The position numbers were made by a program, and so were the translations under genes. Under the pieces are notes generated by a model that had not been told where the DNA came from, searched no databases, and was given only the letters and a program-made list of their open reading frames with translations. Source: Escherichia coli (GTDB lineage Bacteria > Pseudomonadota > Gammaproteobacteria > Enterobacterales > Enterobacteriaceae). From it: DNA of 64,000 bases. Positions within the stretch are counted from its first letter, which is position 1. The number at the start of each line of letters is the position of its first letter. Where the stretch lies: the NCBI RefSeq assembly GCF_024223415.1, contig NZ_CP100500.1. One strand, 5' to 3'. Positions 29,956 to 58,866 of the stretch are shown here, in pieces.

Positions 29956-30115
29956 ACCCTGAATCCATATTTCTTATAACCTGCCCCGGGATACTGCGCT
30001 GCACACGACAGAAACTCGTGTCGTCCCCCGGCACTGACAGCTCCCCGTACCTTACGATACATTAACGTTATCCCCTCACGATCCCTTACGGCAATCTTGC
30101 TTTATTCTCCCCCTT

Positions 30116-33543: not shown

Positions 33544-33718
33544 AAATGCTTCCTTTGTCGTAATGCGTGTCGGTTATAGCAGCAATTACCGCTACAATAG
33601 CGACAATAGCTGCTCTTTCAACAATGAATGCTGGAAATTCTGTTTATCAATTAAACTTCTGGCTAAATTATTCTTATGCTTCTTTTTCCTCCTGAGGTGA
33701 TCACGTGATGACAAAAAC

Positions 33719-34015: not shown

Positions 34016-34223
34016 TTTATCCCCCTTAGTGTGGTGAACTGTCGTTACAGTTTGTATTCCTCGGGTAAATTTTTCTGCGTAAAAAAATGGGTTGAGCAAA
34101 AAGACAATAAACAACTAAAAATCAATATGATAGGAAACAACAGCATTATTGTTATTTTACTTTTCCCTTATCGCTGTCGATTCTCATTATCATTCATGGC
34201 AAAAAAACAGTAAAAGAGGCCCT

Positions 34224-34971
34224 AGTAATGACTCCGGTCAGTAGTACATGTGCTTCGATAAATGAACCAATGGCTTTTCGTTAATTTCCACGGAGCGTGA
34301 AAAGCAAATCGTTTTCAGGGATGGGAGTTTGATGTGAGTACGAAGTATCAGATTGTTGCGCTCAATGCGCCGGGTAAATATCCTGCCGACAGGATGCTTA
34401 TCCTGTGGTACTTCTCTGGTATAACTGCACCAGTTTTCACTGGTTATCATGCCTGAGGAGAATGGCTTCAGAAGTTCCGGCAACTCACTACATGTTTCAT
34501 CAGTACGAGGACCAAAAGTGTAAGCCCGCACACCGCCAGATTTGGTGTTATACGCATACCAGAGCCAGTGCTGACGAGCTTTGTTTCCGACAAAGCTCCA
34601 TTGTTCATCAAGTTCGCATATAAGCGCCACATCGGCACTGGCGACTGGAGATGTGGTTACTTTGCATGGTGAGCGTTTTTTAAAGTGCGAATGACTGTGT
34701 TGATACCCACCTTCAGTGTTCTGGAGGTATCGCGAACCCCGGTTCCGTTATGAGCCATTTCAACGATTTGCTCTTTAACACTTGGTTTTCGGGCTTCGCA
34801 GGTGTAATTCAGTTGAAATACACGTTTGCAGGAGCGGCACTGGAAACAGTGCTGTGACCGTGACGGTACACTTTATCGGAATTACAGCGGGGACAATGTA
34901 CGGTAACTGTTGCCATATGGACTCCGGATACCAACAGAATACCCCATTAATCTGCCCCCGGAAGTCATCCC
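34224..34971 (-). mobile_element. IS1-family insertion sequence, divergent copy with frameshifted insA
   Basis: Terminus AGTAATGACTCC at 34224-34235; InsA-like start at 34916; A6C frameshift motif before insB'. Confidence 0.7.
34238..34630 (-). CDS. insB: IS1 transposase InsB' segment
   Basis: ICELDEQWSFVGNKARQHWLWYAYN…RTHIKLPSLKTICFSRSVEINEK matches IS1 InsB. Confidence 0.75.
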   Translation of the reverse strand: MALICELDEQWSFVGNKARQHWLWYAYNTKSGGVRAYTFGPRTDETCSELPELLKPFSSGMITSENWCSYTREVPQDKHPVGRIFTRRIERNNLILRTHIKLPSLKTICFSRSVEINEKPLVHLSKHMYY

Positions 34972-35111
34972 GGTGCCTTCTGACATAATCTGTTAATACA
35001 TGAATTATTGCCCTGTTCAGAAAATATTAATTAAAAAATGAAAACCAGTTAACAGAAAAGCCACATGACATAATGTTAAAATTTTATATCGTGCAATAAA
35101 AGGAGAATGTT

Positions 35112-36938
35112 ATGTACAATTTTATCACTATAATGTATGATGTCTTTTCATGTTTTGGTGTTCTGGCTAAAAACCAGAATATCCGTGACATCCGAAATAT
35201 TAAAAACTTTTCCTCACATCAACATTCACTGGCCGACATGTTTGATGAATTAACATACATTATTGACAAAGAACAGGTACTGAGCACAGAACAACGAAAA
35301 GTTATATTCAGGAGATATGAAGATCTGTATGTTAAACTCATGCACTATTCTGTTTTTACAGACAAAACACATCAAATAATAAAACAAAAATATTTTAATG
35401 ATGTTGTTCCAATGATTCTCGCGCTCGACATCAGGAACACATATCGCCCGGATAATGAGATGGCATTTTACTATCATATCCATTCTTTTCTCACTCAGAT
35501 ACCGGATAATGAGGATGATATATATCATGCTGTAAGGACATATATGAGAAATTATGTTAAGTTATGTTTATCCGGATACACACCAACGAATGCGCATTTC
35601 AAAAATATCTTTGATGGAGTATATGAATTCATTCGTAATATTCGCAAAAACAGTACACCCGGAAAAACAAAACTTATTGCAGCTATCAACATATGCAAAG
35701 AAGCCTGTAAATATCTGCTTTGTTTAAGTGATAAAGACAAGGAAATAATATTTTCCGACTTAGATAAAATTCAGGTTGCATGTTATTCTCTCACTATATT
35801 ACTGGCTTTCGAAAGACGAACATCATTAACAAGTAACCTGGCAACTTTATATAAAATGCTGATAAACGAAAGAGAAGTTTCAGAATATGAATGTCAGCAA
35901 TTATATTTAATCAACCCAATAGATGTAATGAATATACTGAACAAATACATATATTACTTCCCTGGTGAGAATTCACCTCTTTATACACTGAAAATTGACA
36001 GTGCATTATCGTGGGATGCCATTGATGCAATACGAGACTATAGTATTTCTGATATTTATCTTTATCCTGAACAAAAAACAATAAATTGTATCGTTGAGAT
36101 TGAAAACATTGTCTTTGGCGGTTACATTTATACATTGAGCGACGGCGTCACATTACAAAATATGGAAAACACTTTAAAAGATTCCTCATGTCATTATGTA
36201 TTAAATGGCTATACAGAATTTGTTAACTGTTTAAGACAACTTACTTCAGGAAAGACTGAAAGTGTTCAGCGTACCATTAATAAACTGGAGTACGAAAAAT
36301 TACCTTTTGGATTTATCATTGCCGCGTTTGCTATATTAAAAATAGCATTTAAGATAAAGTTCAGTAAAAATCATGTAAATACCAGGGCATTATTAAATGA
36401 CATCAGTTATTTTATGACTTATCAGGGCGAGTCCATTAATCTTATTTCACTGGATCATGAATATCCAGAGTTCCGTCTTCAAAATGACACAAATACATAT
36501 TTATTGGGAAGGATGATATTTCTATATAACTCAATGATCTATAAATTCAGAAACTGCCAGGAACATGAAACCAATAACATTAACTCAGTTATGATAAATA
36601 ACCTATTACAGGAAGTTGATATAGCCCTTGGTAAAATAAATGACATTATAGACAGCAGAAACATATCAGTCCCCCATGAACTGGCAAATATTCTTATCCA
36701 CGAAAAAATACTTACAACACGTGAAAAAAAAGGAAACCTGATAAGCCTGTTTGATGGATTCACTTTATTCCATTGTGTTGGAATGATAACCTTTCTTATC
36801 CATTACCTCAGAACTCCTGAAGAAAAAGTAGAAAATGTATTTATGTTATATGGTGCAGATAAAAACAATAAACTACGCAGAAGACTGATTTATGATGCAC
36901 TAGAAATAATTCAGTCTCAGCAGGAGATGAAACCTTAA
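35112..36938 (+). CDS. Hypothetical protein, 608 aa, AT-rich orphan (no recognisable domain)
   Basis: AAGGAG six nt upstream of the ATG; composition far more AT-rich than flanks; hairpin 36962-36986 downstream. Confidence 0.8.
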   Translation: MYNFITIMYDVFSCFGVLAKNQNIRDIRNIKNFSSHQHSLADMFDELTYIIDKEQVLSTEQRKVIFRRYEDLYVKLMHYSVFTDKTHQIIKQKYFNDVVPMILALDIRNTYRPDNEMAFYYHIHSFLTQIPDNEDDIYHAVRTYMRNYVKLCLSGYTPTNAHFKNIFDGVYEFIRNIRKNSTPGKTKLIAAINICKEACKYLLCLSDKDKEIIFSDLDKIQVACYSLTILLAFERRTSLTSNLATLYKMLINEREVSEYECQQLYLINPIDVMNILNKYIYYFPGENSPLYTLKIDSALSWDAIDAIRDYSISDIYLYPEQKTINCIVEIENIVFGGYIYTLSDGVTLQNMENTLKDSSCHYVLNGYTEFVNCLRQLTSGKTESVQRTINKLEYEKLPFGFIIAAFAILKIAFKIKFSKNHVNTRALLNDISYFMTYQGESINLISLDHEYPEFRLQNDTNTYLLGRMIFLYNSMIYKFRNCQEHETNNINSVMINNLLQEVDIALGKINDIIDSRNISVPHELANILIHEKILTTREKKGNLISLFDGFTLFHCVGMITFLIHYLRTPEEKVENVFMLYGADKNNKLRRRLIYDALEIIQSQQEMKP

Positions 36939-36961
36939 ACAGGAAAATTATTTTTTATAAA

Positions 36962-36986
36962 CAGGGGATTATTGAGTAATCCCCTG
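36962..36986. terminator. Hairpin CAGGGGATTA-N5-TAATCCCCTG between the convergent 608-aa ORF and int
   Basis: Perfect 10-bp inverted repeat; T-run on the minus-strand side. Confidence 0.5.
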
Positions 36987-37122
36987 CTCATCAAAACCCA
37001 CTTTCCTGACAATCTGATAACTATCAGCTCAATACATTTGACATAAAAGAGATCCCTTAATTATTACCGTTACGGTCACAATCACATATCAAATCATGAT
37101 TGTACAATATACATTTTCACTA

Positions 37123-38325
37123 TTATTTATTCATAATCTGAGACATCACATAATCCGCCCATGCCTGCATCATCGGTACACGCTGCTCCAGTAGATCAGT
37201 ACGATGATATGCCGCCTCAACCTTATTTTTCAGCGTATGAGCGAGCGCCCTTTCAGCCAGATCCCGCGAATACCCCTGCTCACTACACCAGTCCCTGAAT
37301 GTTGAACGAAAACCATGTGCCGTGGCGACTCGCCCCGGAATATCACTGACGGCTTTCTTTTTACGCAGAAAACTGGTCAACACCATATCTGAAAGGATCT
37401 GCTGCTTTCTGGGTGAAGGAAACACCAGTTCATCATGCAGACCACGTATATTTTCCAGAATGTAAATAGCCTGTCGGGATAAAGGAACACGATGCTGTAC
37501 CCTGGCTTTCATTCTTTCTGCTGGTATCGTCCATATCTGCTTATGAAAATCAATTTCAGTCCAGCGCATTCCCCTGGCTTCACCCGAGCGGGTTGCTGTA
37601 AGTATCACCATTAATAACAATGCGCGGGTAACATTATAGGGTTCATCGGTATACACACTGGTCGCCACAAAAAGCGGTAACTGCCTCCATGGCATTGCGG
37701 GTTGGTGTTCATCACGTCCTCTTGTCTGCTGGGGAAGCAAATGATCAACCACATCCACAGGATTTGCCACACAAAAACCATGTGCCCATCCCCACTGCAT
37801 AACAACATGAATGCGCTGTTTAACCCGGCTTGCCGTTTCTGACAAAGTTAACCAGACTGGCCGCAGTGTTTCTGCCACGTCCGCAGCCGTAATCGAATCC
37901 AGCGTTTTCGCTCCCAGTTGAGGAAAGGCGTAATTCTCAAGCGTCGATAACCACTGCCGGACATGCTTTGGATTTTCCCATCCAGGAGACAGTTCTGCAT
38001 GTACACGTCTGGCTGCATCGGCAAATGTTGGGATAACAACTTTTTCAGCCTCAGCCTTTTTAATCTCCAGAGGATCATCACCAGCAGCAAGTTGCTCTCG
38101 CATTATCCGGGCAGTACGTGCAGCTTCAGCAATGCTGATCTCAGGGTAAGTTCCCAATCCAGCATTACGCCTTTTTTGTGTCACCGGACTTACATAACGA
38201 AAAACCCATTTACCCCGACCCTTTACTGAAGAAGGATGAAGGGTCAGTCCTGTAATTCCCCCATGGGGCAATGGTTTGTCATCAGGTTTGATATGCCTTG
38301 CTTTCGTATCCGTCAATACTGCCAT
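37123..38325 (-). CDS. int: Tyrosine-type site-specific integrase (P4/CP4-57 IntA-like)
   Basis: IntA-like N-terminus and C-terminal catalytic region (…HGFRSTFRDW…, …LAHTLKNKVEAAYHR…). Confidence 0.9.
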   Translation of the reverse strand: MAVLTDTKARHIKPDDKPLPHGGITGLTLHPSSVKGRGKWVFRYVSPVTQKRRNAGLGTYPEISIAEAARTARIMREQLAAGDDPLEIKKAEAEKVVIPTFADAARRVHAELSPGWENPKHVRQWLSTLENYAFPQLGAKTLDSITAADVAETLRPVWLTLSETASRVKQRIHVVMQWGWAHGFCVANPVDVVDHLLPQQTRGRDEHQPAMPWRQLPLFVATSVYTDEPYNVTRALLLMVILTATRSGEARGMRWTEIDFHKQIWTIPAERMKARVQHRVPLSRQAIYILENIRGLHDELVFPSPRKQQILSDMVLTSFLRKKKAVSDIPGRVATAHGFRSTFRDWCSEQGYSRDLAERALAHTLKNKVEAAYHRTDLLEQRVPMMQAWADYVMSQIMNK

Positions 38326-38343
38326 ACGCTAATTCCTGTTACT

Positions 38344-38367
38344 CTGGTATGCCATCTGGTATGCCAT
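38344..38367. repeat. Tandem 12-bp direct repeat CTGGTATGCCAT x2 upstream of int
   Basis: Two exact adjacent copies; possible integrase arm-type or promoter element. Confidence 0.5.
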
Positions 38368-38485
38368 TATCTTCACGCTTCAGTCAGAATACAGTAGATG
38401 ACATCAGACAGTAAAATATGCAATATACTGTTTATAATCAAATTTTATGACACAACAGGACTCATTCAGATTCATTTCAGGCGGT

Positions 38486-41637: not shown

Positions 41638-42554
41638 ATCATTTAGTTAATTAGTCTTTATTTTTCATTATGTTGCAAATAACAAGCCCGTCAAAAACAG
41701 TGATATTAACTACACCATTAACTACACCGCTTCACGAACAATATCGAACAACCGCGAACAAAGATCAACACGCTTTAATCATTATCATTTTCCGGCTATC
41801 CGTCATGAAGCTGGTGGATGATCTGCGTGGTGATTTCCACCATTCAGAGCAGGTGCGGTCATCATGACCATGCCATAACAAAAACCCCATATTCGTGGTT
41901 TTTCTGTGTCGGGGCTATTCTGCTGTTGCCGTGCTGGTGGATATTCTCCGGTATGCGGCTCCCCATATCGGCATCAGGCCCACCAGCGTGAAGCGTTTTT
42001 CATTTTTCGCGGGTATAAAAAATCGATGGGGCGGGCAGTCCTGAAGACGTCAGGGTACAGAGATTTGACCCGCCCCTCCCTGTGCATGAGCACAATAAGT
42101 AACCGAAGGCGGAATTCCGCCCTCGGTACTTACATATGAGAAACGATATTTCTTCCACCGATACCCTTTATTTGGGTATCGCGAGTAAGCCCCAAAATCT
42201 GGGTGTTACTCTTACTACCCAAACTACGGGTAGTTTCCGTAGTTTCATGGTCGAGTTGCAAATCTGCAACTCACCCACCAGCCAGCGCAATGTCGCATTA
42301 TCAGTCCTCAGATGTGAGGGATGTAGCCAGCTTTTCCCCCAGTGGGGATTATCCAGTTACCGACGGTTTAACCGCCTGTACCAGCACAACGAAAGAATTT
42401 GCGGGTAGCTTTAAACTACTCACAACATCCCATCTTACAGGCCGTGCCTTTCTAACTTTTTACAATGCAATAAGTCAGGTAACGCTATGCGTTCCACCGT
42501 GTACACCGCGCCAGTAAAACCCCCGGATTCGTGGTTTTCCTGAATATCAGGAAT

Positions 42555-42929
42555 CTACCGCCGCAACCGTTCCGGCTTCTTCCACTGATAAGTGTTTTTC
42601 GCGCTCTCCCTCCGTTGTTGAGAACGGCGACGGTATGCCAGCAACTCAAGGACTCTGGTTCGTATGTTGCGCATATCCACGCCGTTAAGCTCAATACCAT
42701 CACGGCGCATCACCTCAGCAACAACACACGCGTAATTTTCGGCTATCACGCTGTCCGGCTGCGTGGCCTCCTGTTCGCCAGCCTGCTGGCTGATTCCGGT
42801 AATACTGCGGATTATCCCGAGCGCTTCGGTCTCGGTCATGGTCATGGCCTCCATAGTGATGGCGGGTCCTCCTTGTGGGGTGCCCTGCCACGGGGCGGGA
42901 GCATCGCGGAAAAAGGCTAGTTTTTGCAT
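42555..42929 (-). CDS. Hypothetical protein (PICI accessory end; start uncertain)
   Basis: ORF only; no motif recognised. Confidence 0.35.
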   Translation of the reverse strand: MQKLAFFRDAPAPWQGTPQGGPAITMEAMTMTETEALGIIRSITGISQQAGEQEATQPDSVIAENYACVVAEVMRRDGIELNGVDMRNIRTRVLELLAYRRRSQQRRESAKNTYQWKKPERLRR

Positions 42930-43090
42930 TTTTATTCGTTATCACCACCAATGCAATATATTGATATGACTTGATGTTTTATTTTTCGGTGTCGATTTCG
43001 ATTGTTTTTTGTTCATCACTGACGCATAACGCCCACCAGCGCAACGCTGAAAGCCAGTCAGTAAACTGGCTTCGGTCATTGTGCACTACG

Positions 43091-43618
43091 TTACTTGTCT
43101 TTATCCGGCTGAAACTTATCAGGCACATTTCCGGTAGTTTCCATCAGATAATCGGACAGCATTCGCGGGATGTTTTCATCAAGTTTTGTGCATGCGTTAC
43201 AGGCTCTGACAACTTCTTTTTTCAGGCCATCCAGCATGGCGGGGGTCATCTGTGGGAAGCTCCTTTGCATAGTAAGCGGGAGGCTGTCCATGATTGATGA
43301 AATCTGACTCGCCAGTTTTGAAAGCGCGTACATGCAAAACTCTGTATCAATCACGTCACCGCGATCGCGCTCGTTTTTAAGTTCCTGCGCCTCCGCCTGT
43401 GCTGTCAGTAATCTGATCCTGACTCGTAAAAGTTCATCATCGTCAATCTCGCCTTTGTCGTTTGTAATCTGGCTGATTGCATTGTTAACCCGATTATCTA
43501 TTACACTGGCGACATCATAAAACGTCTCACGGCCCTTACGCTCGACGGGAATCACTCCCCACTTATCGAACGCAGTGGCGCTTACTCGGCAGCTTTTCGC
43601 CATGTTTTTTTTATTCAT
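43091..43618 (-). CDS. Small-terminase (lambda Nu1-like) homologue, candidate packaging-redirecting protein
   Basis: Collinear with lambda Nu1 as recalled (N-terminal HTH region, then …LTAQAEAQELKNERD…DTEFCMYALSKLASQISSIMDSLPLTMQRSFP…). Confidence 0.8.
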   Translation of the reverse strand: MNKKNMAKSCRVSATAFDKWGVIPVERKGRETFYDVASVIDNRVNNAISQITNDKGEIDDDELLRVRIRLLTAQAEAQELKNERDRGDVIDTEFCMYALSKLASQISSIMDSLPLTMQRSFPQMTPAMLDGLKKEVVRACNACTKLDENIPRMLSDYLMETTGNVPDKFQPDKDK

Positions 43619-43699
43619 CAGGTGCGATTTCATCAATACCCCCACTTAATTAATGCTTCAGGTTGGTGTGTTGGTGTTATCTTTCCATTTTTATTCATA

Positions 43700-43840
43700 G
43701 AGATAGAGCGAACAACAAAACCACCACCAACCCGAAAAGGCTCATAAATAGCGAAAATCCGCAAGGTCGACGCCCCGTAACGGGTCCACATGCCGGAAAG
43801 GACCCATAAAAAATAAAGCCGGACTACTCCGGCTTCGTCT
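43700..43840 (-). other. Lambda-type cos site (cosQ-cosN-cosB-like)
   Basis: Minus strand reads GGGTCCTTTCCGG…GTTACGGGGCGTCGACCTTGCGGATTTTCGCTATTTATGA, near-identical to the lambda cos region as recalled. Confidence 0.7.
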
Positions 43841-43858
43841 CTTCATGTGGTCAGGGTT

Positions 43859-44443
43859 TTATGCTTTCCGTACGCCCGAGGAACTGGCATTTTTCAGAAT
43901 AATATTATGCCCTGCTGGTGGCTTACCGTTATGCTTATTTTCTGCCTTCATGTTTCTGCGCTCCTGCTGTTTTTTCTTCATCTCATCCAGTCGCTTCCCC
44001 GCGTTCAACTGGTGCTCCTGTGTCACCTCCCCGCACGGATGGCCTTTCAGGTCGTAACGCACGCCACCAGCCATCAGGGAACGGTAATATCGCACTGAAC
44101 TGACATAATACGCCAGCGTTGCGCGAAGCGCTCCCTGACCTAATGAAATACCTCTCGCAGTAATATCCTCCATCAGGTCATCAAATATGCCAACCTTAAG
44201 CGGTCTGGGCGATTCCTGGCTGAAAAGTTCAGGCCAGAGCGCGGCAAGGCGTTCAACGCGTCTGATATTTTTTTTCCGGCTCTTTTCTGATTTGCGTTTT
44301 GCTGCCGTCTTCTGTTGTGTTTTCTGCTCGCGGCTCTGCTTTTGCGCTGGTGTGGTTTTATCCGGCTGTTCAGCCTCCTGCGTCTTTTTCTGCGGTGTGC
44401 CGTATATGCCTTTTGGTTTTCGGTTAATGGTCAGCTTTGTCAT
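43859..44443 (-). CDS. ProQ/FinO-domain RNA-binding-like protein
   Basis: Basic Lys-rich N-terminus followed by LAALWPELFS…PLKVGIFDDL… typical of ProQ/FinO domains. Confidence 0.55.
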   Translation of the reverse strand: MTKLTINRKPKGIYGTPQKKTQEAEQPDKTTPAQKQSREQKTQQKTAAKRKSEKSRKKNIRRVERLAALWPELFSQESPRPLKVGIFDDLMEDITARGISLGQGALRATLAYYVSSVRYYRSLMAGGVRYDLKGHPCGEVTQEHQLNAGKRLDEMKKKQQERRNMKAENKHNGKPPAGHNIILKNASSSGVRKA

Positions 44444-44522
44444 GTTCTCCCCCTTTGTGCTGTTCCACCAGCGGCATCTGCTACCCCGTGTCGCTCCCGC
44501 TGGTGTCGTGTTTCCCCGCCTG

Positions 44523-44843
44523 TTAATAACCGTCATCATTTACGTTATCAGGGTAATCACGCCATATTTCATCAGTAAGCGACGGTAGCCCCATCTGTTG
44601 TATTGTCCTGTCTGCGGCCCTTCTGACTGCGTGAACATCATAACGGTTTTCAGGTATCGGGCGCTTTGCCTTCCTGATACATTCCCTTGCTCTCATTGCC
44701 GCAAGTTCTCTGTGCCTGTCTTCCTGAAGAGTAATCATCACATCCTGCCACCTTCTGGCAGCCCGTCGCCACAGTCCCCTGCTCTCGAGTTCTTCTGCTG
44801 TCGCGTCGCTTATTGTCCGGTTCTTCGGTGTGCTGTTGTTCAT
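44523..44843 (-). CDS. PerC-family transcriptional activator-like protein
   Basis: …AEELESRGLWRRAARRWQDVM… PerC-like signature. Confidence 0.55.
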   Translation of the reverse strand: MNNSTPKNRTISDATAEELESRGLWRRAARRWQDVMITLQEDRHRELAAMRARECIRKAKRPIPENRYDVHAVRRAADRTIQQMGLPSLTDEIWRDYPDNVNDDGY

Positions 44844-44860
44844 GTTGCTCCCCGCCTGAT

Positions 44861-45271
44861 TCAGAAGGGTATATCATCTCCGTAGGGGTCATCGCCTCCC
44901 GCTGGTGGCTTATTCCCCTGTGCGCCTGTGGTTTTGCGTGTTTTTCCGCCCGGTCGCACTGTCCGCGCACTGATTACGCTGTCTGCGATAACCTGCCAGC
45001 CCTGCCGCGTTTCCCCGTTCTGTCCGGTCCACTGGCTCACCTGCATGTTACCCGCCACGCTCAGGAGTTCACCCTTGCGGTGCTTTGCCAGTGCTTCGGC
45101 CTGTCTGCCAAACGCCAGCACAGATAACCACATCGTCGCCGTTCCGTCATCTGCCTGGCTGCACGGAAGGGGGACCGCCATACTCGCCATCGCCATTTGT
45201 GTCCCCTTGCTGGTGGTCTTTAACTGCGGGTCAGCCACCAGCCGCCCGTAAGCCGCTATCTGTGCTGTCAT
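44861..45271 (-). CDS. ssb: Single-stranded DNA-binding protein (SSB-like)
   Basis: OB-fold-like N-terminus and Gly/Pro-rich tail ending in the acidic DDIPF motif. Confidence 0.75.
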   Translation of the reverse strand: MTAQIAAYGRLVADPQLKTTSKGTQMAMASMAVPLPCSQADDGTATMWLSVLAFGRQAEALAKHRKGELLSVAGNMQVSQWTGQNGETRQGWQVIADSVISARTVRPGGKTRKTTGAQGNKPPAGGDDPYGDDIPF

Positions 45272-45525
45272 GCTGTATGCTCTCCGGTTTTAACGTTGAT
45301 GGTTGTCACCTGTTCCGCTCCGGCAATCTCCCGTTCTGTCAGCGTGGCAAAATTTGCCGCTACCGTTGTCATGAATGCGCTTATCAGTGCGGGATGTGCT
45401 TTCGCGTATCCTTCTCCCGCGCTGCGGTCGATAATTTTTATCGCCACCCTCAGCCAGTGCTCTGTAAGGTCAATGGCGCGGTTATGTGGTTTCTTCTGAT
45501 TATTAAGTTTTCCTGATGTGTGCAT
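45268..45525 (-). CDS. Hypothetical protein (85 aa)
   Basis: ORF coupled by overlap to ssb. Confidence 0.4.
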   Translation of the reverse strand: MHTSGKLNNQKKPHNRAIDLTEHWLRVAIKIIDRSAGEGYAKAHPALISAFMTTVAANFATLTEREIAGAEQVTTINVKTGEHTA

Positions 45526-45569
45526 TTTTATTTTTACCCCCTCGTTTAAAAAGTTTTGTGTTGTGGTGC

Positions 45570-45805
45570 ACCTCCTCTACCTCTCTACACAATCATCTTT
45601 CAGGTCAGTAATGGCGCGGCTTTCAGCGGGGTAGAGGGCTTTTTTGGCCCTCTACCTGCCATCTACCACCCCCTCACAAATGCCCTGAATTATGGTAGAG
45701 GGTGTAGAGGGCTTTTAAGTACCTTCTACCTGCCATCTACCCAATCTATCAACATGAAATATATGTAATTATTTTCTTAAGGTAGAAGGGGTAGAGGGCT
45801 TTTGT
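45570..45805. repeat. Iteron cluster, candidate replication origin of the island
   Basis: GTAGAGGGCTTTT x3 (45631, 45704, 45790) and CT(C/T)CTACCTGCCATCTACC x2 (45651, 45724), directly downstream of the replication gene. Confidence 0.6.
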
Positions 45806-45811
45806 CTAAAA

Positions 45812-47560
45812 CTATAAAAACGCGTCGCAGTCGTCTGTTGTTGTCACGTTGGTTTGCGTAACCCCTTTAATCCTGCGCGTTATATATTCATGTCCGTAAA
45901 CTTTCGCCGCTGGCTTCATGGCCTTGCTGAACTCAGCCACGTTCAGCGGTTTGCTCCTGCCTGCATACGCCATAAACGCCAGATAGACGCGGTAAAGGCT
46001 GTTTCTGGTCGTGTACTTCACGGAATCGCCACCGCCCCCCATCATCAGGCCACGTGCTTCCTCCAGAAAATTCAGGAACTGGCAAAACTCAATAACCGGA
46101 TCCGTTTGCTGCTTTATCGCCAGTGCTTCATCACCGTCACGCTGTTCCAGTAGTAAAGCCCGCGCCTTTTCAGGGTCTGCAAAGTTCGCCAGTAATCGGC
46201 GGATAATGACGGGGATTTCAGCCGCAATCCTTTCCGGTAGCTCCCTGTCTTTTTCAGCCTCACTGACGATATTGTCGAAACGAAAAATCACGCGACGACG
46301 TGCCACACCTCCGGCCCGTTCGGTGAATATCATCGGGTTATTGTTGGTCGCCAGCACCACCGCCCTGATTACAGCCGTGAAACGCTTTTCGTATTTCGGG
46401 TTAATTTCCACGGGGTCACCGCCCGTGATTTTCTTGATGCCCGTTCCTTCGCCTGTATATTTCGGCTGGTCTGCCAGGACGATAAGACGACTCCCGACAA
46501 CCTGCGCACGCCCACCAGCATCATCAAGCGATGTCATCTCAGCGCTTACCGTGTTCTGTTTCCCTGCCAGAAGGCTGGCTATGTGCGTGAATGTACTTTT
46601 ACCGCTCCCGCCGTCTCCGGTGGCCTCAATAAACATCTGCCAGTCGTACCGGTTCGCCATAATCATGTACAGCGCGGCACATATACGCATCATCTTGCGC
46701 GGGTCTTTTCCGGCTGCGTGCTCAAGCCATTTATGAAAGTTTGGCGCGTTATCGCGGATGTTCTCCCCAGGTGCTGGTGGCGTGTACTCAATGCCATTGT
46801 GCGTGGTGATCCAGTTCTCCGGCGTGTGCGGGGAAAATTCCCCCGTTTTCAGGTCAAGCGCACCATTGGCGAACGGCAGCAAATCGCCGGACGGCTCGCC
46901 CATTGGTTCGGCAATAACTTTTAACGCTTCCACGGCGTTATTGATTACGCGCTTGCTGAAAGTGGCCCTGTGCTCTGAATAGATCGCCACCATTTCGCGG
47001 CTCAGTTCCATTGTGCTGACCGGACACCATACCCCGCCGCGCCATACGTGAACGATTTCACTTTCCGGATGCACACAAACGCCATCAAATCGACCAGCAA
47101 GCATCTGTGCGCGCTCACTGTCTGCCATTTGTGCCAGTTGCGTATTTTTCTGCTCCGGCATGGTAAGCCCTGCAGCAATATTTTCACGCTCAGCATTCAG
47201 ATAACGCCGCCAGTTTTCACACTTCTGACCGTGCATTCCTTCGGGGTAAAAATTTGCGTCCTGTACGCCAGCCGCCGCCAGCTTCTGACCAATCGCCTTT
47301 ATCATTACTGGCGCAAGATATCCGGCCCTGAATATACGCACGGATTTTCTGCCTTCCGGCACAATTTGCAGCTTATCCAGTTCGGATAACTGCTGCTCCC
47401 CAAGCCACACAGGAGGCTCATTATCTCCGGCCATACGCGCGTCATGTTCCTGCCATTGTTTCGCGTGTGCCCAGGCATCACTACCCGCAAAAATAATGAC
47501 TTCAGTTCCTTTGTGTTTTATGCCGCGTGACTGCAGTTTTACGTTCGGTGCCAGTTTCAT
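45812..47560 (-). CDS. Replication protein with SF3-type helicase domain (P4-alpha/D5-like primase C-terminal region)
   Basis: Walker A ATGDGGSGKST and Walker B-like RLIVLAD in the C-terminal half. Confidence 0.8.
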   Translation of the reverse strand: MKLAPNVKLQSRGIKHKGTEVIIFAGSDAWAHAKQWQEHDARMAGDNEPPVWLGEQQLSELDKLQIVPEGRKSVRIFRAGYLAPVMIKAIGQKLAAAGVQDANFYPEGMHGQKCENWRRYLNAERENIAAGLTMPEQKNTQLAQMADSERAQMLAGRFDGVCVHPESEIVHVWRGGVWCPVSTMELSREMVAIYSEHRATFSKRVINNAVEALKVIAEPMGEPSGDLLPFANGALDLKTGEFSPHTPENWITTHNGIEYTPPAPGENIRDNAPNFHKWLEHAAGKDPRKMMRICAALYMIMANRYDWQMFIEATGDGGSGKSTFTHIASLLAGKQNTVSAEMTSLDDAGGRAQVVGSRLIVLADQPKYTGEGTGIKKITGGDPVEINPKYEKRFTAVIRAVVLATNNNPMIFTERAGGVARRRVIFRFDNIVSEAEKDRELPERIAAEIPVIIRRLLANFADPEKARALLLEQRDGDEALAIKQQTDPVIEFCQFLNFLEEARGLMMGGGGDSVKYTTRNSLYRVYLAFMAYAGRSKPLNVAEFSKAMKPAAKVYGHEYITRRIKGVTQTNVTTTDDCDAFL

Positions 47561-47856
47561 TTTTTACCCCTGAATCCGTTAATCATGGTTTTCATCTTCT
47601 GAATATTGGCGCGTGCTTTCTCCCTGCTGGTGGGCACGTTACGCGGTACGGCCTGCACAAGAGAAAAATCACGCACAAACTGATAAACAGGCATCACGCA
47701 ATCATATTCGTAACCTTCATGGCGGTAGGTGATGCGCCGTTCTGCCACGCCTTTAATCGTTACCGTACCGCCGTAGTTATCACGGAAAATATCGCCGGGA
47801 CGGATTTCAGGCCGAGTGAGGCCGCTGGCAGTAAAGCCAGAATTTTTCTTTTTCAT
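47557..47856 (-). CDS. Hypothetical protein (99 aa), overlap-coupled to the replication gene
   Basis: ORF with 4-bp overlap to the downstream gene. Confidence 0.45.
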   Translation of the reverse strand: MKKKNSGFTASGLTRPEIRPGDIFRDNYGGTVTIKGVAERRITYRHEGYEYDCVMPVYQFVRDFSLVQAVPRNVPTSREKARANIQKMKTMINGFRGKK

Positions 47857-48052
47857 GGTTTTATTTTCCTGTCAGTGATTCCGGCTTTATTCCGGCGCGA
47901 ATACAGGCTTCAGAAAAAAAGCCAGAGAACCAATAACCTCATTATTTCTAAGGCGGCATTGCGATTTCACTTTCCCTTTATCCAGGAATATCAAAACGCG
48001 CCCCGTATAATCAGATGGCACATTAAGCACTACAGGTAAGTGCGCTTCATGA

Positions 48053-48340
48053 TTATTCATGGCTAACCACCTCCTGGAATTTTCTTCTGTAACGCGCCTC
48101 TGCCACATATTCAGCATAGTCCGACGCAATATTGAGAATATCGCTACCCGTTCCTGAATGTTCGGCGGTTTCCAGTAAAAAACATGCAGCTTTTACCATG
48201 TCAGCAACACATAACAGCGCAATATCTGTATCTTCCGGTGTGCCATCAAATTCCTGTTTCAGGGCATTAAAACGATCATCACGCATAACCCCATATTCAC
48301 AATCAGCAATCAGGATGGCTTTGGCCTCATTCAGTGCCAT
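48053..48340 (-). CDS. Hypothetical protein (~95 aa; only plausible part of the long ORF 48053-50041)
   Basis: C-terminal segment reads like protein while the rest of the 662-aa frame is low-complexity; start at ATG 48340 assumed. Confidence 0.35.
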   Translation of the reverse strand: MALNEAKAILIADCEYGVMRDDRFNALKQEFDGTPEDTDIALLCVADMVKAACFLLETAEHSGTGSDILNIASDYAEYVAEARYRRKFQEVVSHE

Positions 48341-49381
48341 ATCAGCGGTAAGCTGTGCGTAGGCCAGCAAATGCGGGATTATTGCCCCTGTATATTCCGG
48401 CTCTCTGATAATGTGGTCGGATGTGTTGATTAAATAGTTTGTGCGAAAAATGCACCTGTAACCATCAGTTAACAACGGATATACAGGGGGGACCATGAAT
48501 GATAAGGGGGTGCCGTTTGATGTGCTCCTGCAAAAGCTGAATGCTGCACGCGCCGCAAGGGAACGTGAGCGCATGAGTAATAACCCTGTCCCTCCTGAAT
48601 TACCTCGCCCTGAACATTTTCCGCTTGAGGATTTCATCAGGGGACGAATCCGAACAAAACGATAACCGCCGCCGTGATATGAGGCATCACGACGCAATGC
48701 ATTACAGGTGAGCACCATGAACAAATCCATATTATCCCCCACAGTTCTGGACGTAAACACAAAGCAGCGACAGATATTATTACGCGCCGTCATTAAAGCC
48801 AGACACGAGAAATTAAACCAAATCTTAAAATAAGATACGCCGCTACCGCTGTAAGTCTTCATCAGAAACAGAAAACGCCAGAGCAGATGAGCACGGAGGT
48901 AACTCTTTATGAAAATAAACGAATCAGGGGAAATTACCGAAGCCAGCGTGGTACGCCAGCGGAGGCGGGAACGACGGGTACGGCCCCCCGCGCCATCCGA
49001 TAATTTCCCGCTTGAGCGCTTCATCAGTGAACGGCCCCGCATACGCTGGAACGGCACAACCCCATACCCCGAGGAGAGACAGACAAAAAACAAACAGCGA
49101 TGATGAAATCTGGAGGCCAATACCATCACCCAGCCAGTCGGGGATTGCTGGCGGGCTTCCTGTTCGCTGGTGGCCCCGATGGTAATAACGCGTGGTTGTG
49201 CTGTGCTCAGGGCGATAAAACGCCAGATGTATTTATTCAGGTTGTGCGGGTCCCGCCCTTGCGGGTGTGTGGTATGATTTAACATAGCTACCTCGATACG
49301 CTTTCTATCGTTGGTGGTTAGAAGCCCCGTTACTGCTCCAACAGTGCGGGGTTTCGTCGTTTCTGCACCTTTCATCAACAA

Positions 49382-49435
49382 GGTGTTGAACACCAATTTA
49401 AGCCTAGGTGTTAAACACGCCAAGTGTTGAACACT
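49382..49435. promoter_or_regulatory. Three operator-like palindromes (GGTGTTGAACACC / GGTGTTAAACACG / AGTGTTGAACACT)
   Basis: Three 13-bp near-identical inverted repeats within 55 bp, in the regulatory region downstream of alpA. Confidence 0.5.
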
Positions 49436-50051
49436 TATTTTTTTTCCTGCATACTGCATTTGTTTTTTGTAAGGGGTACACAACATGGCGACAAAAGCAG
49501 TAAACGCAAAATCACAAACAGTTGCGGCAAGGGTTCCGCATGAAGTTATGAACAATGTTGAGGCGGTAAAAATGCCTGGTGAAAGTACAGGGCAGTTTGT
49601 AACAGCAGCATTAAAGCGAGAAGTTGAATACCGCCAGCGCCGCAAGGCCAAAGAATCAGAATAATCACTATCAGCGCCGTGGTGTGAGGTACTGCGGCGC
49701 ATTGTTTTAAAGGTGATAATTATGAATAACCAGGAACTACAAAATAAAGCATTATCAATTATCATGCGCCAGCGTGAGAAAACCCGCAGGGAAATAAATA
49801 AGGCATTAACCCGTACTGAAAATCTTAAAGTTCCTGATAAGTTCGCCCTTGATCCTTTTGTCGAGAAATACCCTCGGCGCTTAAAAGCAAACAAAAACCG
49901 CCCACCTGGCTGACAATCCACCAGCAAGCCACCACACTGGACACATTGCCCACCAGCCAGCAAATCGCTATGATGTTCGGGCTTATGTTTAGTGTTTTCC
50001 CATTGGCGACCGCCCCCGGTCGCCTTTGTTTTATGTGTCATATACTCCCCT

Positions 50052-50348
50052 TTACGCTGCCTTGCCTGAATTAATGCGATCCCGGCTTTTAACCCATTCC
50101 ATAACCTCGGACAGCAGCCAACCTACAGAACGCCCACCAAGATTACGGCGAGACGGAAAGCTCCCTTTTTTCTCCAGTTCGTAGCGTGTAGTGCGACACA
50201 CTCCAGTTAACTTACGACATTCATCCTCACGGATTACGCGATCTTCATTTATTTCACGCATACAAAAACCTACATAAAAATTACGTATATAAACTTTTCT
50301 CTTAGCTGTAGATATATGAGATCGGATATTACTTAGATTCTTTTTCAC
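50052..50348 (-). CDS. alpA: AlpA-family regulator/excisionase-like protein (start uncertain)
   Basis: …RKLTGVCRTTRYELEKKGSFPSRRNLGGRSVGWLLSEVMEWV… AlpA signature; the 50348 start is GTG. Confidence 0.6.
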   Translation of the reverse strand: MKKNLSNIRSHISTAKRKVYIRNFYVGFCMREINEDRVIREDECRKLTGVCRTTRYELEKKGSFPSRRNLGGRSVGWLLSEVMEWVKSRDRINSGKAA

Positions 50349-50680
50349 CTCTTAAATTAAAAACACAACCATGCTAAAGGCTTTGTTCGCTAAGGTTCGT
50401 AGAAGCTCGTTAGTGTTTAAAATCGTGTCACGAGTTTTTAAGCGACGCAACAAAAAATGTCGTCATTTGGCATGTCACCTGAATTACCTCATTAAAAACA
50501 AATAGATAAACCATCAGATGTTGGAACAATCAAGAAACAGAGAATAAGAACTCAGAAGAAGACATTTCAATTTTTTTCGATAGTTGACACATATAAAGAG
50601 AAGATATTTGCAGATATTCCCCGATATTCTAAGATCTATTCACGGCTGTAATCTCTTAAAGAAAAAACAGCCGTAATTTG

Positions 50681-51919
50681 TCAAGAATTTTGGGGGTAAA
50701 TTCGCGGGGTCATAACAACGATTTTTTCATCATTGTTCTGGAGAAGCTCGAGACGGTCTACCCATAGATTAAGAGCGTCACGCTTTGCATCGAGATAACG
50801 GGAGTGGTTATAGACGCGTTGCATTCCTGGCATCTGGTGGGCAGTAAGCTGTTCAACAATATGCGGATCCACGCCTAAATCGTTCAGCATGGTTGTAAAT
50901 GTGTGCCGGATGTCGTGCAACGACCAGGGGGCTTGATTAATGCGTCTGTGTGCCGTTCTTCCGTACTCTGCTACGGATGATTGCCCTTTCAGTTCTCCAA
51001 GCAATAAGCCCGTGTGCCTGTTCTGCTCCACCAGCTTCATGACGAACGGCAAGATCGCTTCCGGTATTGGCCTGAATATTGCTACCTTCGTTTTGCTGTG
51101 TTCTTTCGGCACAGTCCAGAGCATTTCTTTAAAATCCCATTCCCGAACCTCGGAGCGTCTTAGCTCAGTGGTACGGCATCCGAAGACAATCAGAAGGCGA
51201 ATTAAAGCGCTGTAGTACGGCGGGAAAATTTTTTCATCCAGTGCGCGGAGTAGCTCGCCAAGCTCCTTGTTTGTTAGCACTCGCTCGCTTATTTCTGCTT
51301 TTTTTCCCACATCACCTACGACCATATCATCAAGAACGTTACTGACGGCGTAGCGACGTTTACGGCAGTACTTAAGCGCCTGTTTGCATACCTGCAACAA
51401 AAAGCCGGCTGATACCGGATTACGCTTAGCAAGCTGGTCAAAACAGGCCAGCCAGTGGCGTAGCTCGCATTTATCCAGCGGCATAGCACCAATCTGGCTG
51501 ATTATGTGCTTATTGATACGGCTTTTCAGTGATTCGTGGTCAGTGCGCTTTTCCTTCGCATACGACTCAAGCCAGTAAGTGAGCGCGTCCTTAACCGTCA
51601 CGGGGGCTAACGCTTCCTGCACTGTGTGATTAAGCTCATGGCGTGGATTTTTCCCCTCCGCCAGCCAGGCGCGACACTGTGCCGCTTTTTCCCTGGCTGC
51701 TTTCAGGCTCAGATCGGGATAGTTGCCCAGTCTCAGGCGTTCCGGTGATACCTGCCTGCCAGTTCCGGCCCTGTAAGTGAAATACCAGGTTAACAGGCCG
51801 CTGGTGGAATGTCTTACGCTAAGATTGCCACCGTCATTAAAAAAGGCGTTTTTTGTGGTTGGTGATCCGCTTAATTTTCGTAAAAGAGTGTCGCTAAGTC
51901 TATGAATTGCGCTGCTCAT
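50681..51919 (-). CDS. int: Tyrosine-type site-specific integrase
   Basis: C-terminal catalytic region with …LHDIRHTFTTML… and …VYNHSRYLD…; hairpin 50644-50676 downstream. Confidence 0.9.
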   Translation of the reverse strand: MSSAIHRLSDTLLRKLSGSPTTKNAFFNDGGNLSVRHSTSGLLTWYFTYRAGTGRQVSPERLRLGNYPDLSLKAAREKAAQCRAWLAEGKNPRHELNHTVQEALAPVTVKDALTYWLESYAKEKRTDHESLKSRINKHIISQIGAMPLDKCELRHWLACFDQLAKRNPVSAGFLLQVCKQALKYCRKRRYAVSNVLDDMVVGDVGKKAEISERVLTNKELGELLRALDEKIFPPYYSALIRLLIVFGCRTTELRRSEVREWDFKEMLWTVPKEHSKTKVAIFRPIPEAILPFVMKLVEQNRHTGLLLGELKGQSSVAEYGRTAHRRINQAPWSLHDIRHTFTTMLNDLGVDPHIVEQLTAHQMPGMQRVYNHSRYLDAKRDALNLWVDRLELLQNNDEKIVVMTPRIYPQNS

Positions 51920-52085
51920 GTTTCGCGTTTCCGGTCATCAAAATTAACTACACCATTGACTACACCGTGCATCGTACAAGGGCAAACCGTGACGAACAAG
52001 AGCGAACAAGTAAAACAAAATTTTCCTTTATAATCATAGCGATGAATGCACACAAAACACTACCACGAACACCCGCGAACACTAG

Positions 52086-55793: not shown

Positions 55794-56786
55794 ATGGTGA
55801 AATCGACGTCATGTACAACCATTGATTTCATGAATATGTCGCAGCTAACTGAACGGACCTTTACGCCATCTGAATCTCTCAGCAGCCTGTCACTTTTTCT
55901 TAGTCTGGCACGTGGACAGTGTCGGCCGGGTAAATTCTGGCATCGCCGTAGTTTTCGCCAGAAATTTTTGCTGCGCTCGTTGATTATGCCGCGTTTAAGC
56001 GTTGAGTGGATGAACGAACTTTCCCACTGGCCTAATCTCAATGTGTTGTTAACGCGCCAGCCGCGACTGCCTGTACGTCTGCATCGCCCTTACCTTGCGG
56101 CGAATCTTAGCCGTAAGCAATTGCTGGAGGCGTTACGTTACCATTATGCGTTACTCCGCGGGTGTATGTCGGCGGAAGAATTCAGCTTATATTTGAATAC
56201 CCCCGGGCTGCAACTGGCGAAGCTGGAAGGCAAAAACGGCGAGCAGTTCACGCTTGAGCTGACCATGATGATCTCAATGGATAAAGAAGGTGACAGCACA
56301 ATCCTGTTCCGCAACAGCGAAGGTATTCCTCTGGCAGAAATCACGTTTACCCTGTGTGAATATCAGGGGAAAAGAACGATGTTTATTGGAGGACTGCAAG
56401 GCGCAAAATGGGAAATTCCACATCAGGAAATCCAGAATGCGACGAAAGCCTGCCACGGGCTATTTCCCAAACGCCTCGTGATGGAAGCGGCCTGTCTGTT
56501 TGCCCAACGTTTGCAGGTAGAGCAGATTATTGCCGTCAGCAATGAAACGCATATTTACCGCAGCCTGCGTTATCGCGATAAAGAAGGCAAGATCCATGCC
56601 GATTACAACGCTTTCTGGGAATCGGTTGGCGGCGTATGTGATGCTGAACGCCATTACCGCCTTCCAGCACAGATAGCACGAAAAGAGATTGCCGAAATCG
56701 CCAGTAAAAAACGGGCTGAATACCGTCGGCGCTATGAGATGCTCGACGCTATTCAGCCACAAATGGCCACGATGTTTCGCGGTTAA
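55794..56786 (+). CDS. ybjX: VirK/YbjX-family protein (DUF535)
   Basis: Position between macA and ybjD as in E. coli; 330 aa. Confidence 0.75.
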   Translation: MVKSTSCTTIDFMNMSQLTERTFTPSESLSSLSLFLSLARGQCRPGKFWHRRSFRQKFLLRSLIMPRLSVEWMNELSHWPNLNVLLTRQPRLPVRLHRPYLAANLSRKQLLEALRYHYALLRGCMSAEEFSLYLNTPGLQLAKLEGKNGEQFTLELTMMISMDKEGDSTILFRNSEGIPLAEITFTLCEYQGKRTMFIGGLQGAKWEIPHQEIQNATKACHGLFPKRLVMEAACLFAQRLQVEQIIAVSNETHIYRSLRYRDKEGKIHADYNAFWESVGGVCDAERHYRLPAQIARKEIAEIASKKRAEYRRRYEMLDAIQPQMATMFRG

Positions 56787-58441
56787 TCCGCGCGACCGCG
56801 CGCCAGCCACAGCACGCGTGAGAACATTTTTTTCAGCAGCGTCGGTACGGAGTCCACACCACGACGTCCGGCCTCCATTGCCACTTCAATGGCAAGATCG
56901 GGTTTGGAAGAGCGATGGATCGCTTTCGAGATAATTTTGCGCAGATTCATCGGGACATTTTCCGGGATTTGCGCCACGCGGTGGAACACATCGGAAAATC
57001 CCTGGCGATACATAAAATGTTCCATATCCAGCGCCGGTAACGCCGTTAAATGTTCTCGTTCGGCTTCCCGATCATTATTCAACAGGCTGCGTACCGTAGC
57101 GGCATATTTCTTCCCTGCTTCATCGCCATCGACCAGTACATGCCATTCAATCCCCATTCGGCGGGCAAATTTAACCAGTGGCTTTAGCCCGGACTGGGCA
57201 AACTCAATGACCTTGATCCCTTCGGCATCAAAATGATGTCCGCACTGACGCGCCAGTTCATTGATAACCCAGGTTTCCGTTTCCCCTTCCACCAGCAACC
57301 AGCAGCGAGCAAACAGCGATGACGGACGATTAAAACGAATGTGAAAAGAGATGCGGCGGCTGTCTTCGGTGCTCAAGCCACTTGGCCCCAGACGCCAGGC
57401 GGCAACACGAGAAGATTCACGCACCAGGCGGCAAACATGTTCCACTGGAGTTAACGAAAGCAGCTCGCCAGAGTTGGTGGTAGCAATACGTTGTAAAGGC
57501 AAAAGATTCAACAGATGCCAGGCAACTGAAAGCATAATGGGGTGTAAACGCGTTTCTGGATCTTCGATCAGCAACAATGGACGGGCGTCTTTATCCAGTC
57601 GCAATGTGCCTTTTGCCTGCAATAAAGTAGCAAACAGGCCGAGCAAAATAACCCGATACGAGCGCCCTCCAGGTCGGTCAATCATCCGGTTGATGATGTC
57701 CAGATAGCGCCAGCTTCGTTGCTCATTGCTGGCCCGCCGCCGCATTAAACGATATCGCGCCTGTCCAGCCCCCTGCTCAGAGAAATAATGCTCAAGCAAC
57801 TGCACCATTGCGGAAAGTCCCTGACGAATCTGTCCATCAGAGAGATTTTGCGGATGTGAGGACAACTCACGGGCGAGGAAATCGAGCTGGCGCGCGGTGA
57901 CTTCCACATTGGGGACATTTGGCACCGTGCCGTTACGAATACGGCGCATAAAACGGGCATCACGCAAGCGCAGCACCGGCATTAAACGCACCAGATGGCG
58001 TGCCTGATCGTTAATATCCTCAACATCAATCGGATGTCCGTCTTTATCGAGAAAACTGCGCAGTGTCATCACGCTGCCGTCTTCCGCACTCTCCCCTTCC
58101 AGACGATAAAAAATACGGTGATAGCCATCGGTGCATGGCGTCCAGCACGCTTCCAGCGGCCGATAACGGCGAACCCGATGTCGGCCTGGCAGCGATTCGC
58201 GGAAGGTCAAAATAATATGCAGATGATGTTCTCGCCCGTTGATATCTCCCGGCGGGAACCAGAAATCGTCGCGCTCAAAATGGTAGAGATCTGATTCTGG
58301 CGATAGCAGCAGGGTTAAGGCGTCCAACAAGCTGGATTTACCCCACGCGTTCTCCCCAATCAGGACGTTGTTTTGTTCCAGCATCAACGACAAACGGTTG
58401 ATACCGCGAAAACCCACAATTTCAACGCGCTCAAGAATCAT
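56783..58441 (-). CDS. ybjD: OLD-family ATP-dependent endonuclease YbjD
   Basis: N-terminal ABC-type ATPase (GENAWGKSSLLDAL) with C-terminal Toprim-like region; matches YbjD. Confidence 0.9.
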   Translation of the reverse strand: MILERVEIVGFRGINRLSLMLEQNNVLIGENAWGKSSLLDALTLLLSPESDLYHFERDDFWFPPGDINGREHHLHIILTFRESLPGRHRVRRYRPLEACWTPCTDGYHRIFYRLEGESAEDGSVMTLRSFLDKDGHPIDVEDINDQARHLVRLMPVLRLRDARFMRRIRNGTVPNVPNVEVTARQLDFLARELSSHPQNLSDGQIRQGLSAMVQLLEHYFSEQGAGQARYRLMRRRASNEQRSWRYLDIINRMIDRPGGRSYRVILLGLFATLLQAKGTLRLDKDARPLLLIEDPETRLHPIMLSVAWHLLNLLPLQRIATTNSGELLSLTPVEHVCRLVRESSRVAAWRLGPSGLSTEDSRRISFHIRFNRPSSLFARCWLLVEGETETWVINELARQCGHHFDAEGIKVIEFAQSGLKPLVKFARRMGIEWHVLVDGDEAGKKYAATVRSLLNNDREAEREHLTALPALDMEHFMYRQGFSDVFHRVAQIPENVPMNLRKIISKAIHRSSKPDLAIEVAMEAGRRGVDSVPTLLKKMFSRVLWLARGRAD

Positions 58442-58866
58442 ATCCCCTCCAGAAATATGTGACTTATCCTTTACGCTGGCAGTATAACGGGAAAGGCCTT
58501 GCTAATACGTGATGACATCACATTTAAGCATGGCAAATGTCTGAAAAATGAGCGAATAATCGCGTTATACTCCCTCTTGCTGATAAGTCTGCAAAAACAA
58601 CAAAATCAAATAATTAGCATGATAAATTATTTTTTATTACGCCTAAAGGATTAAATCTTTTGCTTGCACTACACTGTCAATCAGACAAATGACTATATGG
58701 GGCAACCCGCTGTTGCCCTAAATCAAATTTACTGGATTTATTTATCTGGTGAATGACTCGCCTTCGTTTTTAAAATAGCCGCGCATTATTTCCGTCGTCA
58801 CTTTTTTACGACGACCCTATAAAACGACCATATTTTTCACAGGGTCAATTTTTAATTGAGGTGGAT

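Follow-up and report, generated by a model that had tools for sequence, protein, structure and literature searches.

We analysed ybjD and its surroundings in a 64,000-nucleotide stretch of Escherichia coli DNA (NCBI RefSeq assembly GCF_024223415.1, contig NZ_CP100500.1), which we refer to as the window. The gene lies between ybjX and aqpZ, and two islands are found to its left (Table 1). Its protein product is identical at 552 of 552 positions to WP_000599806.1 from strain SCU-316, and of 5426 complete E. coli genomes, 5424 yield a full-length megablast match to the gene (95–99.9% DNA identity, median of one copy per genome), annotated there as ‘ybjD: ATP-dependent endonuclease’. The alignment and the genome counts bear out a first-pass annotation of the window, which had named the gene YbjD and called it a core gene. 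It had also called YbjD not novel, and rightly so: the protein served as the seed for the 2019 classification of OLD proteins, where it was put in Class 1 (PMC6755086), and renaming to oldB was put forward in 2026 together with a characterisation (PMC13261556). Published work thus already covers the gene, its family and class, and a first look at its phenotypes. New in our analysis are the fixed synteny across the order, a dN/dS at housekeeping level and the Toprim domain as the most constrained part of the protein.

Table 1. Features of the ybjD locus and of the neighbouring islands (positions in the window)
Feature	Position	Strand	Basis
Island 2, accessory DNA at serW, at least 38 kb, continuing past the left edge of the window	1..38485		No match to island-free strain left of 38486
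Island 2 integrase	37123..38325	-	Abuts serW 3' remnant at ~38486
Island 1, putative phage satellite, ~10.4 kb, between clpS and yljB	41638..52085 (approx.)		Comparison with island-free strain, att-like repeat, PHROGs
Island 1 integrase	50681..51919	-	Within satellite island
ybjX (VirK/YbjX family)	55830..56786	+	Annotation of identical loci; sequence
ybjD (oldB) CDS, predicted Class 1 OLD-family ATPase-nuclease	56783..58441	-	ATG-to-stop ORF, 552 codons plus stop
C-terminal helices, residues 471–552, with invariant D472/E474/K513	56786..57031	-	Invariance; helices in AlphaFold2 model
Toprim core, residues 378–470, with E385/E389/D438-G-D440	57032..57310	-	OLD-like_TOPRIM; residue invariance
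ABC-type ATPase region (DUF2813), residues 1–377, helical insert ~161–285	57311..58441	-	Pfam, motif conservation, profile alignment to GajA and Thermus OLD, AlphaFold2 model
ybjD-aqpZ divergent intergenic region, 425 bp	58442..58866		Sequence

ybjX is convergent with ybjD, and the stop codons of the two genes overlap in a TTAA at 56783–56786; the pair has been described as an RNA-seq-supported convergent transcriptional overlap (‘excludon’) in E. coli (PMC12288877). On the aqpZ side, a predicted ribosome-binding site (GGAGG, minus strand, 58446–58450) lies just upstream of the ybjD start. A simple and insensitive scan of the intergenic region (58442–58866) returned no consensus sigma-70 promoter, which we regard as uninformative rather than negative. 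SOS regulation was considered as a hint to a role in repair, and no LexA box or LexA-box-like site was found in the same interval. An Rfam scan of positions 38000–64000 located nothing in or beside ybjD, its only matches being CRISPR repeats near clpA. The aqpZ-ybjD spacer has been employed elsewhere as a neutral insertion site, according to other literature on ybjD. Three ORFs run antisense inside the gene (56889–57236, 57351–57707 and 57995–58294) and are annotated in no record; they sit in a coding region under strong purifying selection.

The first-pass annotation had placed two mobile elements nearby, and we recover both: island 1 between clpS and yljB, and island 2 with its integrase at a serW remnant. 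Island boundaries were defined by comparison with one island-free strain. The edge of island 1 lies 4,697 bp from the ybjD stop codon, close to the ∼4.6 kb given before. Its junctions carry a 22-bp duplication, with an imperfect ATGATA(G/A)ATAACTATCAT repeat at both ends, and PHROGs matches identify an integrase, a repressor-domain/Icd-like protein, a primase, an SSB, a PerC-like activator and a small terminase, whereas none of the 10 island 1 ORFs scanned matches a capsid, tail or large terminase protein. Because it combines this satellite gene set with a lack of virion structural matches in these ORFs, island 1 is, judged by gene content and PICI/P4-like criteria, a phage satellite, in line with the first-pass annotation. 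Island 2 contains an integrase, AlpA, a DUF3987 protein, an AEP-TOTE primase-helicase and metabolic cargo. Nothing to the left of the serW remnant matches the core infA-aat-cydCD region, and ARAGORN detects no tRNA within the window. Of the 5426 genomes, 5058 have an intact clpS-yljB site (∼7% occupied) and 3169 an intact serW site (up to 42% occupied). The earlier description of ybjD as a ‘conserved neighbour’ of these elements thus holds for the gene but not for the islands, which are variable.

The ABC-ATPase plus Toprim architecture that had been assigned to YbjD, and with it the OLD family, is upheld by Pfam, by a profile search against solved structures and by fold comparison. DUF2813 covers residues 1–375 (E 2e-160) and OLD-like_TOPRIM residues 376–440 (E 4e-16), and several P-loop/ABC/SMC-type Pfam families, including AAA_15 and AAA_21, match the first 50–75 residues. 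A profile built from an alignment of YbjD with 44 relatives (28–91% identity) finds, among solved structures, GajA (E 1e-20) and the Class 1 OLD protein from Thermus scotoductus (6P74, E 1.5e-19), the latter over positions 2–439, aligned with chain residues 1–433. Further matches are the retron Eco8 OLD and the C-terminal regions of the Class 2 Bp and Xcc OLD proteins (6NK8/6NJV), with PtuA, Rad50, SMC, RecF and RecN ranked lower. The AlphaFold2 model of YbjD (mean pLDDT 82.5, pTM 0.79) returns the same ranking in Foldseek: GajA (4e-18), 6P74 (5e-17), Eco8 OLD (∼1e-13), then PtuA, Rad50 and SMC heads. Helices are predicted in the C-terminal region at 473–490, 500–527 and 534–547. Confidence is low only at 162–176 and 221–245, two segments that fall in the helical insert, the presumed dimerisation domain.

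We located the catalytic motifs of YbjD using the lists for P2 Old and Thermus OLD as reference (PMC7049728). The ATPase region contains a Walker A motif (G29-E-N-x-x-G-K35-S), a Walker B motif (E293-D294), a D-loop histidine (H300) and an asparagine (N323) at the H-loop position. The Walker A, Walker B and D-loop positions are kept in 40–45 of 45 diverse relatives (K35 in 40), with the exception of Walker B D294 (Asp in 25, Glu in 13); the H-loop position is Asn in 33 sequences of this clade, His in 6 and Tyr in 4. N323 was considered as a new feature, and the exchange is real, yet a His-to-Asn replacement in the H-loop has previously been reported for Class 1 OLDs (PMC7049728). We also rejected residues 200–204 (‘LSDGQ’) as an ABC signature, as they show no conservation in the clade. 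The profile alignment sets the signature-like ‘SGDG’ of GajA opposite ‘PGGR’ at YbjD residues 256–259, and a degenerate signature has been described in OLD proteins (PMC7049728).

On the nuclease side, E385, E389, D438, D440, D472, E474 and K513 are invariant in all 45 clade relatives. E385 together with D438/D440 would coordinate metal A. E389 with D472/E474 presumably forms the second metal site (metal B), the corresponding reference glutamates being E404 in Bp OLD and E402 in P2 Old, and K513 is the presumed catalytic lysine. From the reference proteins we infer that D472/E474/K513 are equivalent to D541/E543/K550 in P2 Old and T506/E508/K562 in Bp OLD (PMC7049728, PMC6755086). Within Enterobacterales, all listed ATPase and nuclease residues, N323 included, are invariant in 78 of 78 sequences (E. 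coli and 77 orthologues). In the same order, the Toprim core is the best-conserved segment of YbjD (mean identity 0.907, 49 of 93 positions invariant), and conservation is lowest at residues 91–150.

Sampling one genome per species yielded 80 ybjD loci, all from Enterobacterales, with identity declining from 99% to 66% with phylogenetic distance: 97–99% in Escherichia, ∼90% in Citrobacter, ∼85% in Klebsiella and Enterobacter, and 66–68% in Pectobacterium, Brenneria and Serratia. A separate protein search gave ∼90% for Salmonella. The block hcp-lysO-(aqpZ)-ybjD-(ybjX)-macA-macB is kept as far as Serratia; neighbours were found in the 80 loci as follows, some loci ending at contig edges: hcp 70, lysO 67, macA 67, macB 66, aqpZ 56 and ybjX 56. 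YbjD keeps pace with MacB or AqpZ in its divergence, and YbjX diverges much faster (46–60% identity at the Citrobacter/Enterobacter level). Nei-Gojobori estimates of dN/dS for ybjD come to 0.015 in the comparison with E. albertii (dS 0.75) and ∼0.03 in that with Citrobacter, values equal to or below those for aqpZ, macB, macA and hcp. Among 50,697 phage records the sole genuine YbjD match is a local one to P2 Old, with 28% identity over residues 252–440. ybjD does not show the patchy distribution, variable location and association with mobile elements of a mobile defence gene. As read from these comparisons, it has long resided in the chromosome, is passed on vertically and evolves under very strong purifying selection, unlike a mobile defence cassette.

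OLD classes are set by genomic context (PMC6755086, PMC13261556). Annotation of the ybjD flanks shows neither a helicase nor a reverse transcriptase nor a split partner. Pfam places the ATPase and Toprim domains on a single polypeptide, so YbjD is not a split AriA/AriB PARIS pair (Class 4), and NCBIfam models for retron effectors match only its P-loop region, far under their cut-offs, so it is not part of a retron (Class 3). Since there is no helicase, retron or split partner near the gene, YbjD is a Class 1 (stand-alone) OLD, in agreement with the 2019 and 2026 assignments. The best PADLOC models for the protein are GajA (PDLC00094, E 7e-80) and Old (PDLC02358, E 2e-24). That the first of these carries the GajA name, and that GajA also heads the profile and fold matches among solved structures, could be taken as a sign of a degenerate Gabija system, with YbjD as its GajA subunit and the GajB helicase either lost or encoded elsewhere. 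However, the conserved block in E. coli lacks a UvrD-like helicase (the 80 Enterobacterales loci, whose block is conserved, were screened just for the seven named neighbour genes), and YbjD resembles the Class 1 Thermus OLD just as strongly, over nearly the full length. Many relatives align with just the C-terminal half of YbjD, and some of these are among seven distant members of the DUF2813 clade (32–45% identity) that we inspected: all combine DUF2813 with Toprim, all lie in unrelated housekeeping or metabolic contexts, and none has a UvrD-like helicase beside it. The Gabija origin is thereby largely refuted and highly improbable, and the Gabija label on YbjD is a mere HMM resemblance. A functional tie between ybjD and the islands, such as guarding of the serW and clpS-yljB sites or modulation of the satellite, appears equally far-fetched. 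Proximity is the single point in its favour (the satellite is 4.7 kb away, the serW junction ∼18 kb), and we found no functional link to either island. Against it, >99.9% of genomes have ybjD but 93% lack an insertion at clpS-yljB and 58% lack one at serW, macAB, ybjX, cspD and yljB intervene between ybjD and the nearest island, and both ybjD and its synteny are older than E. coli. We take the closeness to be coincidental: serW and the clpS-yljB spacer are the insertion targets, and ybjD is part of the core block alongside. We assign a probability of about 0.88 to the overall reading that the feature is the ordinary, intact, chromosomal E. coli gene ybjD (oldB), a stand-alone member of Class 1 OLD, with islands nearby by coincidence, a mechanism like that of its homologues (see below) and probably no major anti-phage role at native expression.

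The native function of YbjD is less clear-cut. Expression of ybjD has been detected, and the Keio ybjD knockout leaves susceptibility to the BASEL phages unchanged (PMC13261556). Overexpression, at a low level from a plasmid, confers partial protection: Bas18 and Bas20 plaque less well, and Bas64-68 form smaller plaques (PMC13261556). This effect requires the ATPase region, whereas Toprim is dispensable, and a K35A mutant keeps the anti-phage phenotype while being more toxic (PMC13261556). We found no biochemistry on YbjD, either as a metal-dependent nuclease or as an ATPase in vitro, in the literature searched. YbjD, as a Class 1 OLD, could work primarily against phages, in the manner of P2 Old or the OLD of Vibrio cholerae, and so contribute to the defence phenotypes of the hot spot; its membership in the OLD family (by Pfam, profile and fold), the defence models at the top of the PADLOC matches (GajA and Old) and the overexpression phenotype would all fit. 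We consider this rather unlikely: besides the knockout being silent with the BASEL phages, ybjD is universal in E. coli, single-copy, syntenic across the order and slow to evolve (dN/dS 0.015–0.03), the opposite of the patchy, mobile and fast-evolving pattern typical of defence genes. Moreover, the YbjD clade is absent from phage genomes, and the nuclease domain, although unneeded for the overexpression phenotype, is the most constrained part. The first-pass annotation had held ybjD relevant to defence phenotypes of the locus; the partial protection on overexpression speaks for this, but the unchanged BASEL susceptibility of the knockout and the housekeeping-type conservation do not, and at native expression ybjD is probably not a major anti-phage determinant here, although it may act against other phages or satellites. 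Given the silent knockout in the published test, ybjD is no default explanation for a defence phenotype that maps to this region, and because the gene is in every E. coli it cannot explain differences between strains.

A stand-alone OLD protein under housekeeping constraint throughout an order, with a nuclease domain that is unneeded for its sole known phenotype, presents a puzzle. As the Toprim domain dispensable in the assay is the part most tightly constrained, the most economical reading is that the selected function would use the nuclease and that overexpression with phage challenge, as published, missed this native role. We tentatively propose, at somewhat less than even odds, that YbjD may not be a defence protein but a chromosome-fixed OLD protein whose nuclease serves genome or RNA maintenance throughout Enterobacterales. 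The anti-phage effect on overexpression would then be a side effect of the ATPase region. A maintenance role fits the order-wide synteny, the very low dN/dS and the Toprim constraint, and Cran1, an OLD protein of archaea that acts in the cell cycle (cited in PMC13261556), is a possible precedent.

By analogy with Thermus OLD, Bp OLD, P2 Old and GajA, YbjD would oligomerise via the helical insert of its ATPase region, and nucleotide binding at the ATPase head could gate access of nucleic acids to a two-metal Toprim site. Candidate outcomes are DNA nicking or cleavage, or an action on tRNA as for P2 Old. This gating model, which derives from P2 Old and GajA, may not describe the overexpression phenotype, because Toprim and Walker A K35 are dispensable there (PMC13261556).

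Among known systems, GajA from Gabija (Class 2 OLD; 8SM3, 8U7I, 8X5I) provides the best fold, profile and PADLOC HMM match to YbjD, but GajA acts with an adjacent GajB helicase, whereas YbjD is without such a partner in every context examined. The Thermus scotoductus OLD (6P74, PMC7049728) is, like YbjD, a stand-alone protein that combines an ABC ATPase bearing a helical insert with a Toprim domain, and the two share the Walker B glutamate, the D-loop histidine and, presumably, a two-metal site. They are ∼17% identical, and YbjD differs by the Asn in place of the H-loop His and by ∼80 residues of C-terminal helices with an invariant lysine. P2 Old belongs to the same family and class and has an equivalent set of catalytic motifs (PMC7049728). 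It is, however, prophage-borne, triggered by compromised RecBCD and cleaves tRNAs (bioRxiv 10.64898/2026.07.10.737580), while YbjD is a chromosomal core protein whose toxicity, unlike that of P2 Old, is RecBC-independent (PMC13261556). YbjD from E. coli K-12 (b0876, OldB) is the same gene, with the same aqpZ and ybjX flanks, length and motifs and no substantive difference from the protein described here.

Beyond YbjD itself, a representative protein library contains several large sequences of 1000–1900 amino acids (P0149, P0162, P0163, P0165, P0175 and P0196) with a YbjD-like region. This region shares 40–45% sequence identity with YbjD residues ∼255–500, corresponding to the C-lobe of the ATPase and the Toprim domain, and the match falls in 3–5 stretches. 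In these proteins, the OLD module may be part of a large fusion or repeat architecture. The gene for P0184, a distant member of the DUF2813 clade (locus L090/L091), is located 47 nt upstream of a co-directional family-B DNA polymerase gene and is itself preceded immediately by a PhdYeFM-PIN toxin-antitoxin pair. This neighborhood, a single case, is at most a possible hint of a link to DNA metabolism.

The ybjX gene evolves far more quickly than all its neighbors. At the level of Citrobacter and Enterobacter, YbjX shares 46–60% protein identity where YbjD, MacB and Hcp share 85–95%. Across 80 Enterobacterales ybjD loci, one genome per species (L004–L083), ybjX is absent from about a quarter, and the block around it remains fixed.

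The left part of the window (positions 1–25000) is rare accessory DNA, matched at ≥99% identity by just 12 E. coli records, each of which covers at most 45% of it. Its metabolic cargo comprises a GABA transaminase, an aromatic amino-acid transporter, second copies of lldD and lldP, an MFS transporter, an aldehyde dehydrogenase, a sigma-54 activator and a Na/alanine symporter, and the region also bears IS fragments and a PapB-like regulator.

Two further genes of the accessory DNA at serW (the serW island) are listed in the table below, together with the other features described here. One encodes a protein that joins an archaeo-eukaryotic primase domain of the AEP-TOTE type (E = 6e-99) to an SF2 helicase (ResIII/DEAD/Helicase_C) and is labeled PrimPol by PADLOC. 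The gene is intact in the window; its counterpart in strain TUM1886 is a frameshifted fragment adjoining a 4959-nt AAA-domain gene. The protein may belong to a conflict system carried by the serW island. The second, the 608-residue ORF, lies in a strongly AT-rich patch (31–32% GC versus ∼50% in its surroundings). A search of Pfam, PADLOC and NCBIfam returned no match. Of 5426 E. coli genomes, 1036 carry the gene at 90–95% identity, annotated as hypothetical in every case. O157:H7 genomes among the matches listed carry it at two places per record. Position and composition are consistent with cargo of the island that may serve in defense.

In the phage satellite between clpS and yljB, the repressor/Icd-like ORF encodes 662 amino acids, compared with 1434 nt annotated for its TUM1886 counterpart; the length difference may reflect a fusion or a different choice of start.

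Coordinates of accessory and neighboring features in the window
Feature	Position	Strand	Size	Location
AEP-TOTE primase-helicase	27604–29955	-	783 aa	serW island
AT-rich ORF	35112–36938	+	608 aa	directly adjoins serW-island integrase
Direct repeats (n = 3)	38544–38692		28 nt each	between clpA and serW junction
ORF with repressor/Icd-like domains	48053–50041	-	662 aa	satellite island
ybjX	55830–56786

The direct repeats near clpA are spaced by 60–61 nt; two are identical and the third is 82% identical. Two of the three match the Rfam family CRISPR-DR4 (50 bits), and no cas genes were seen near them. The repeats resemble the orphan type I-F CRISPR remnant that is known from the clpA-infA region of E. 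coli.
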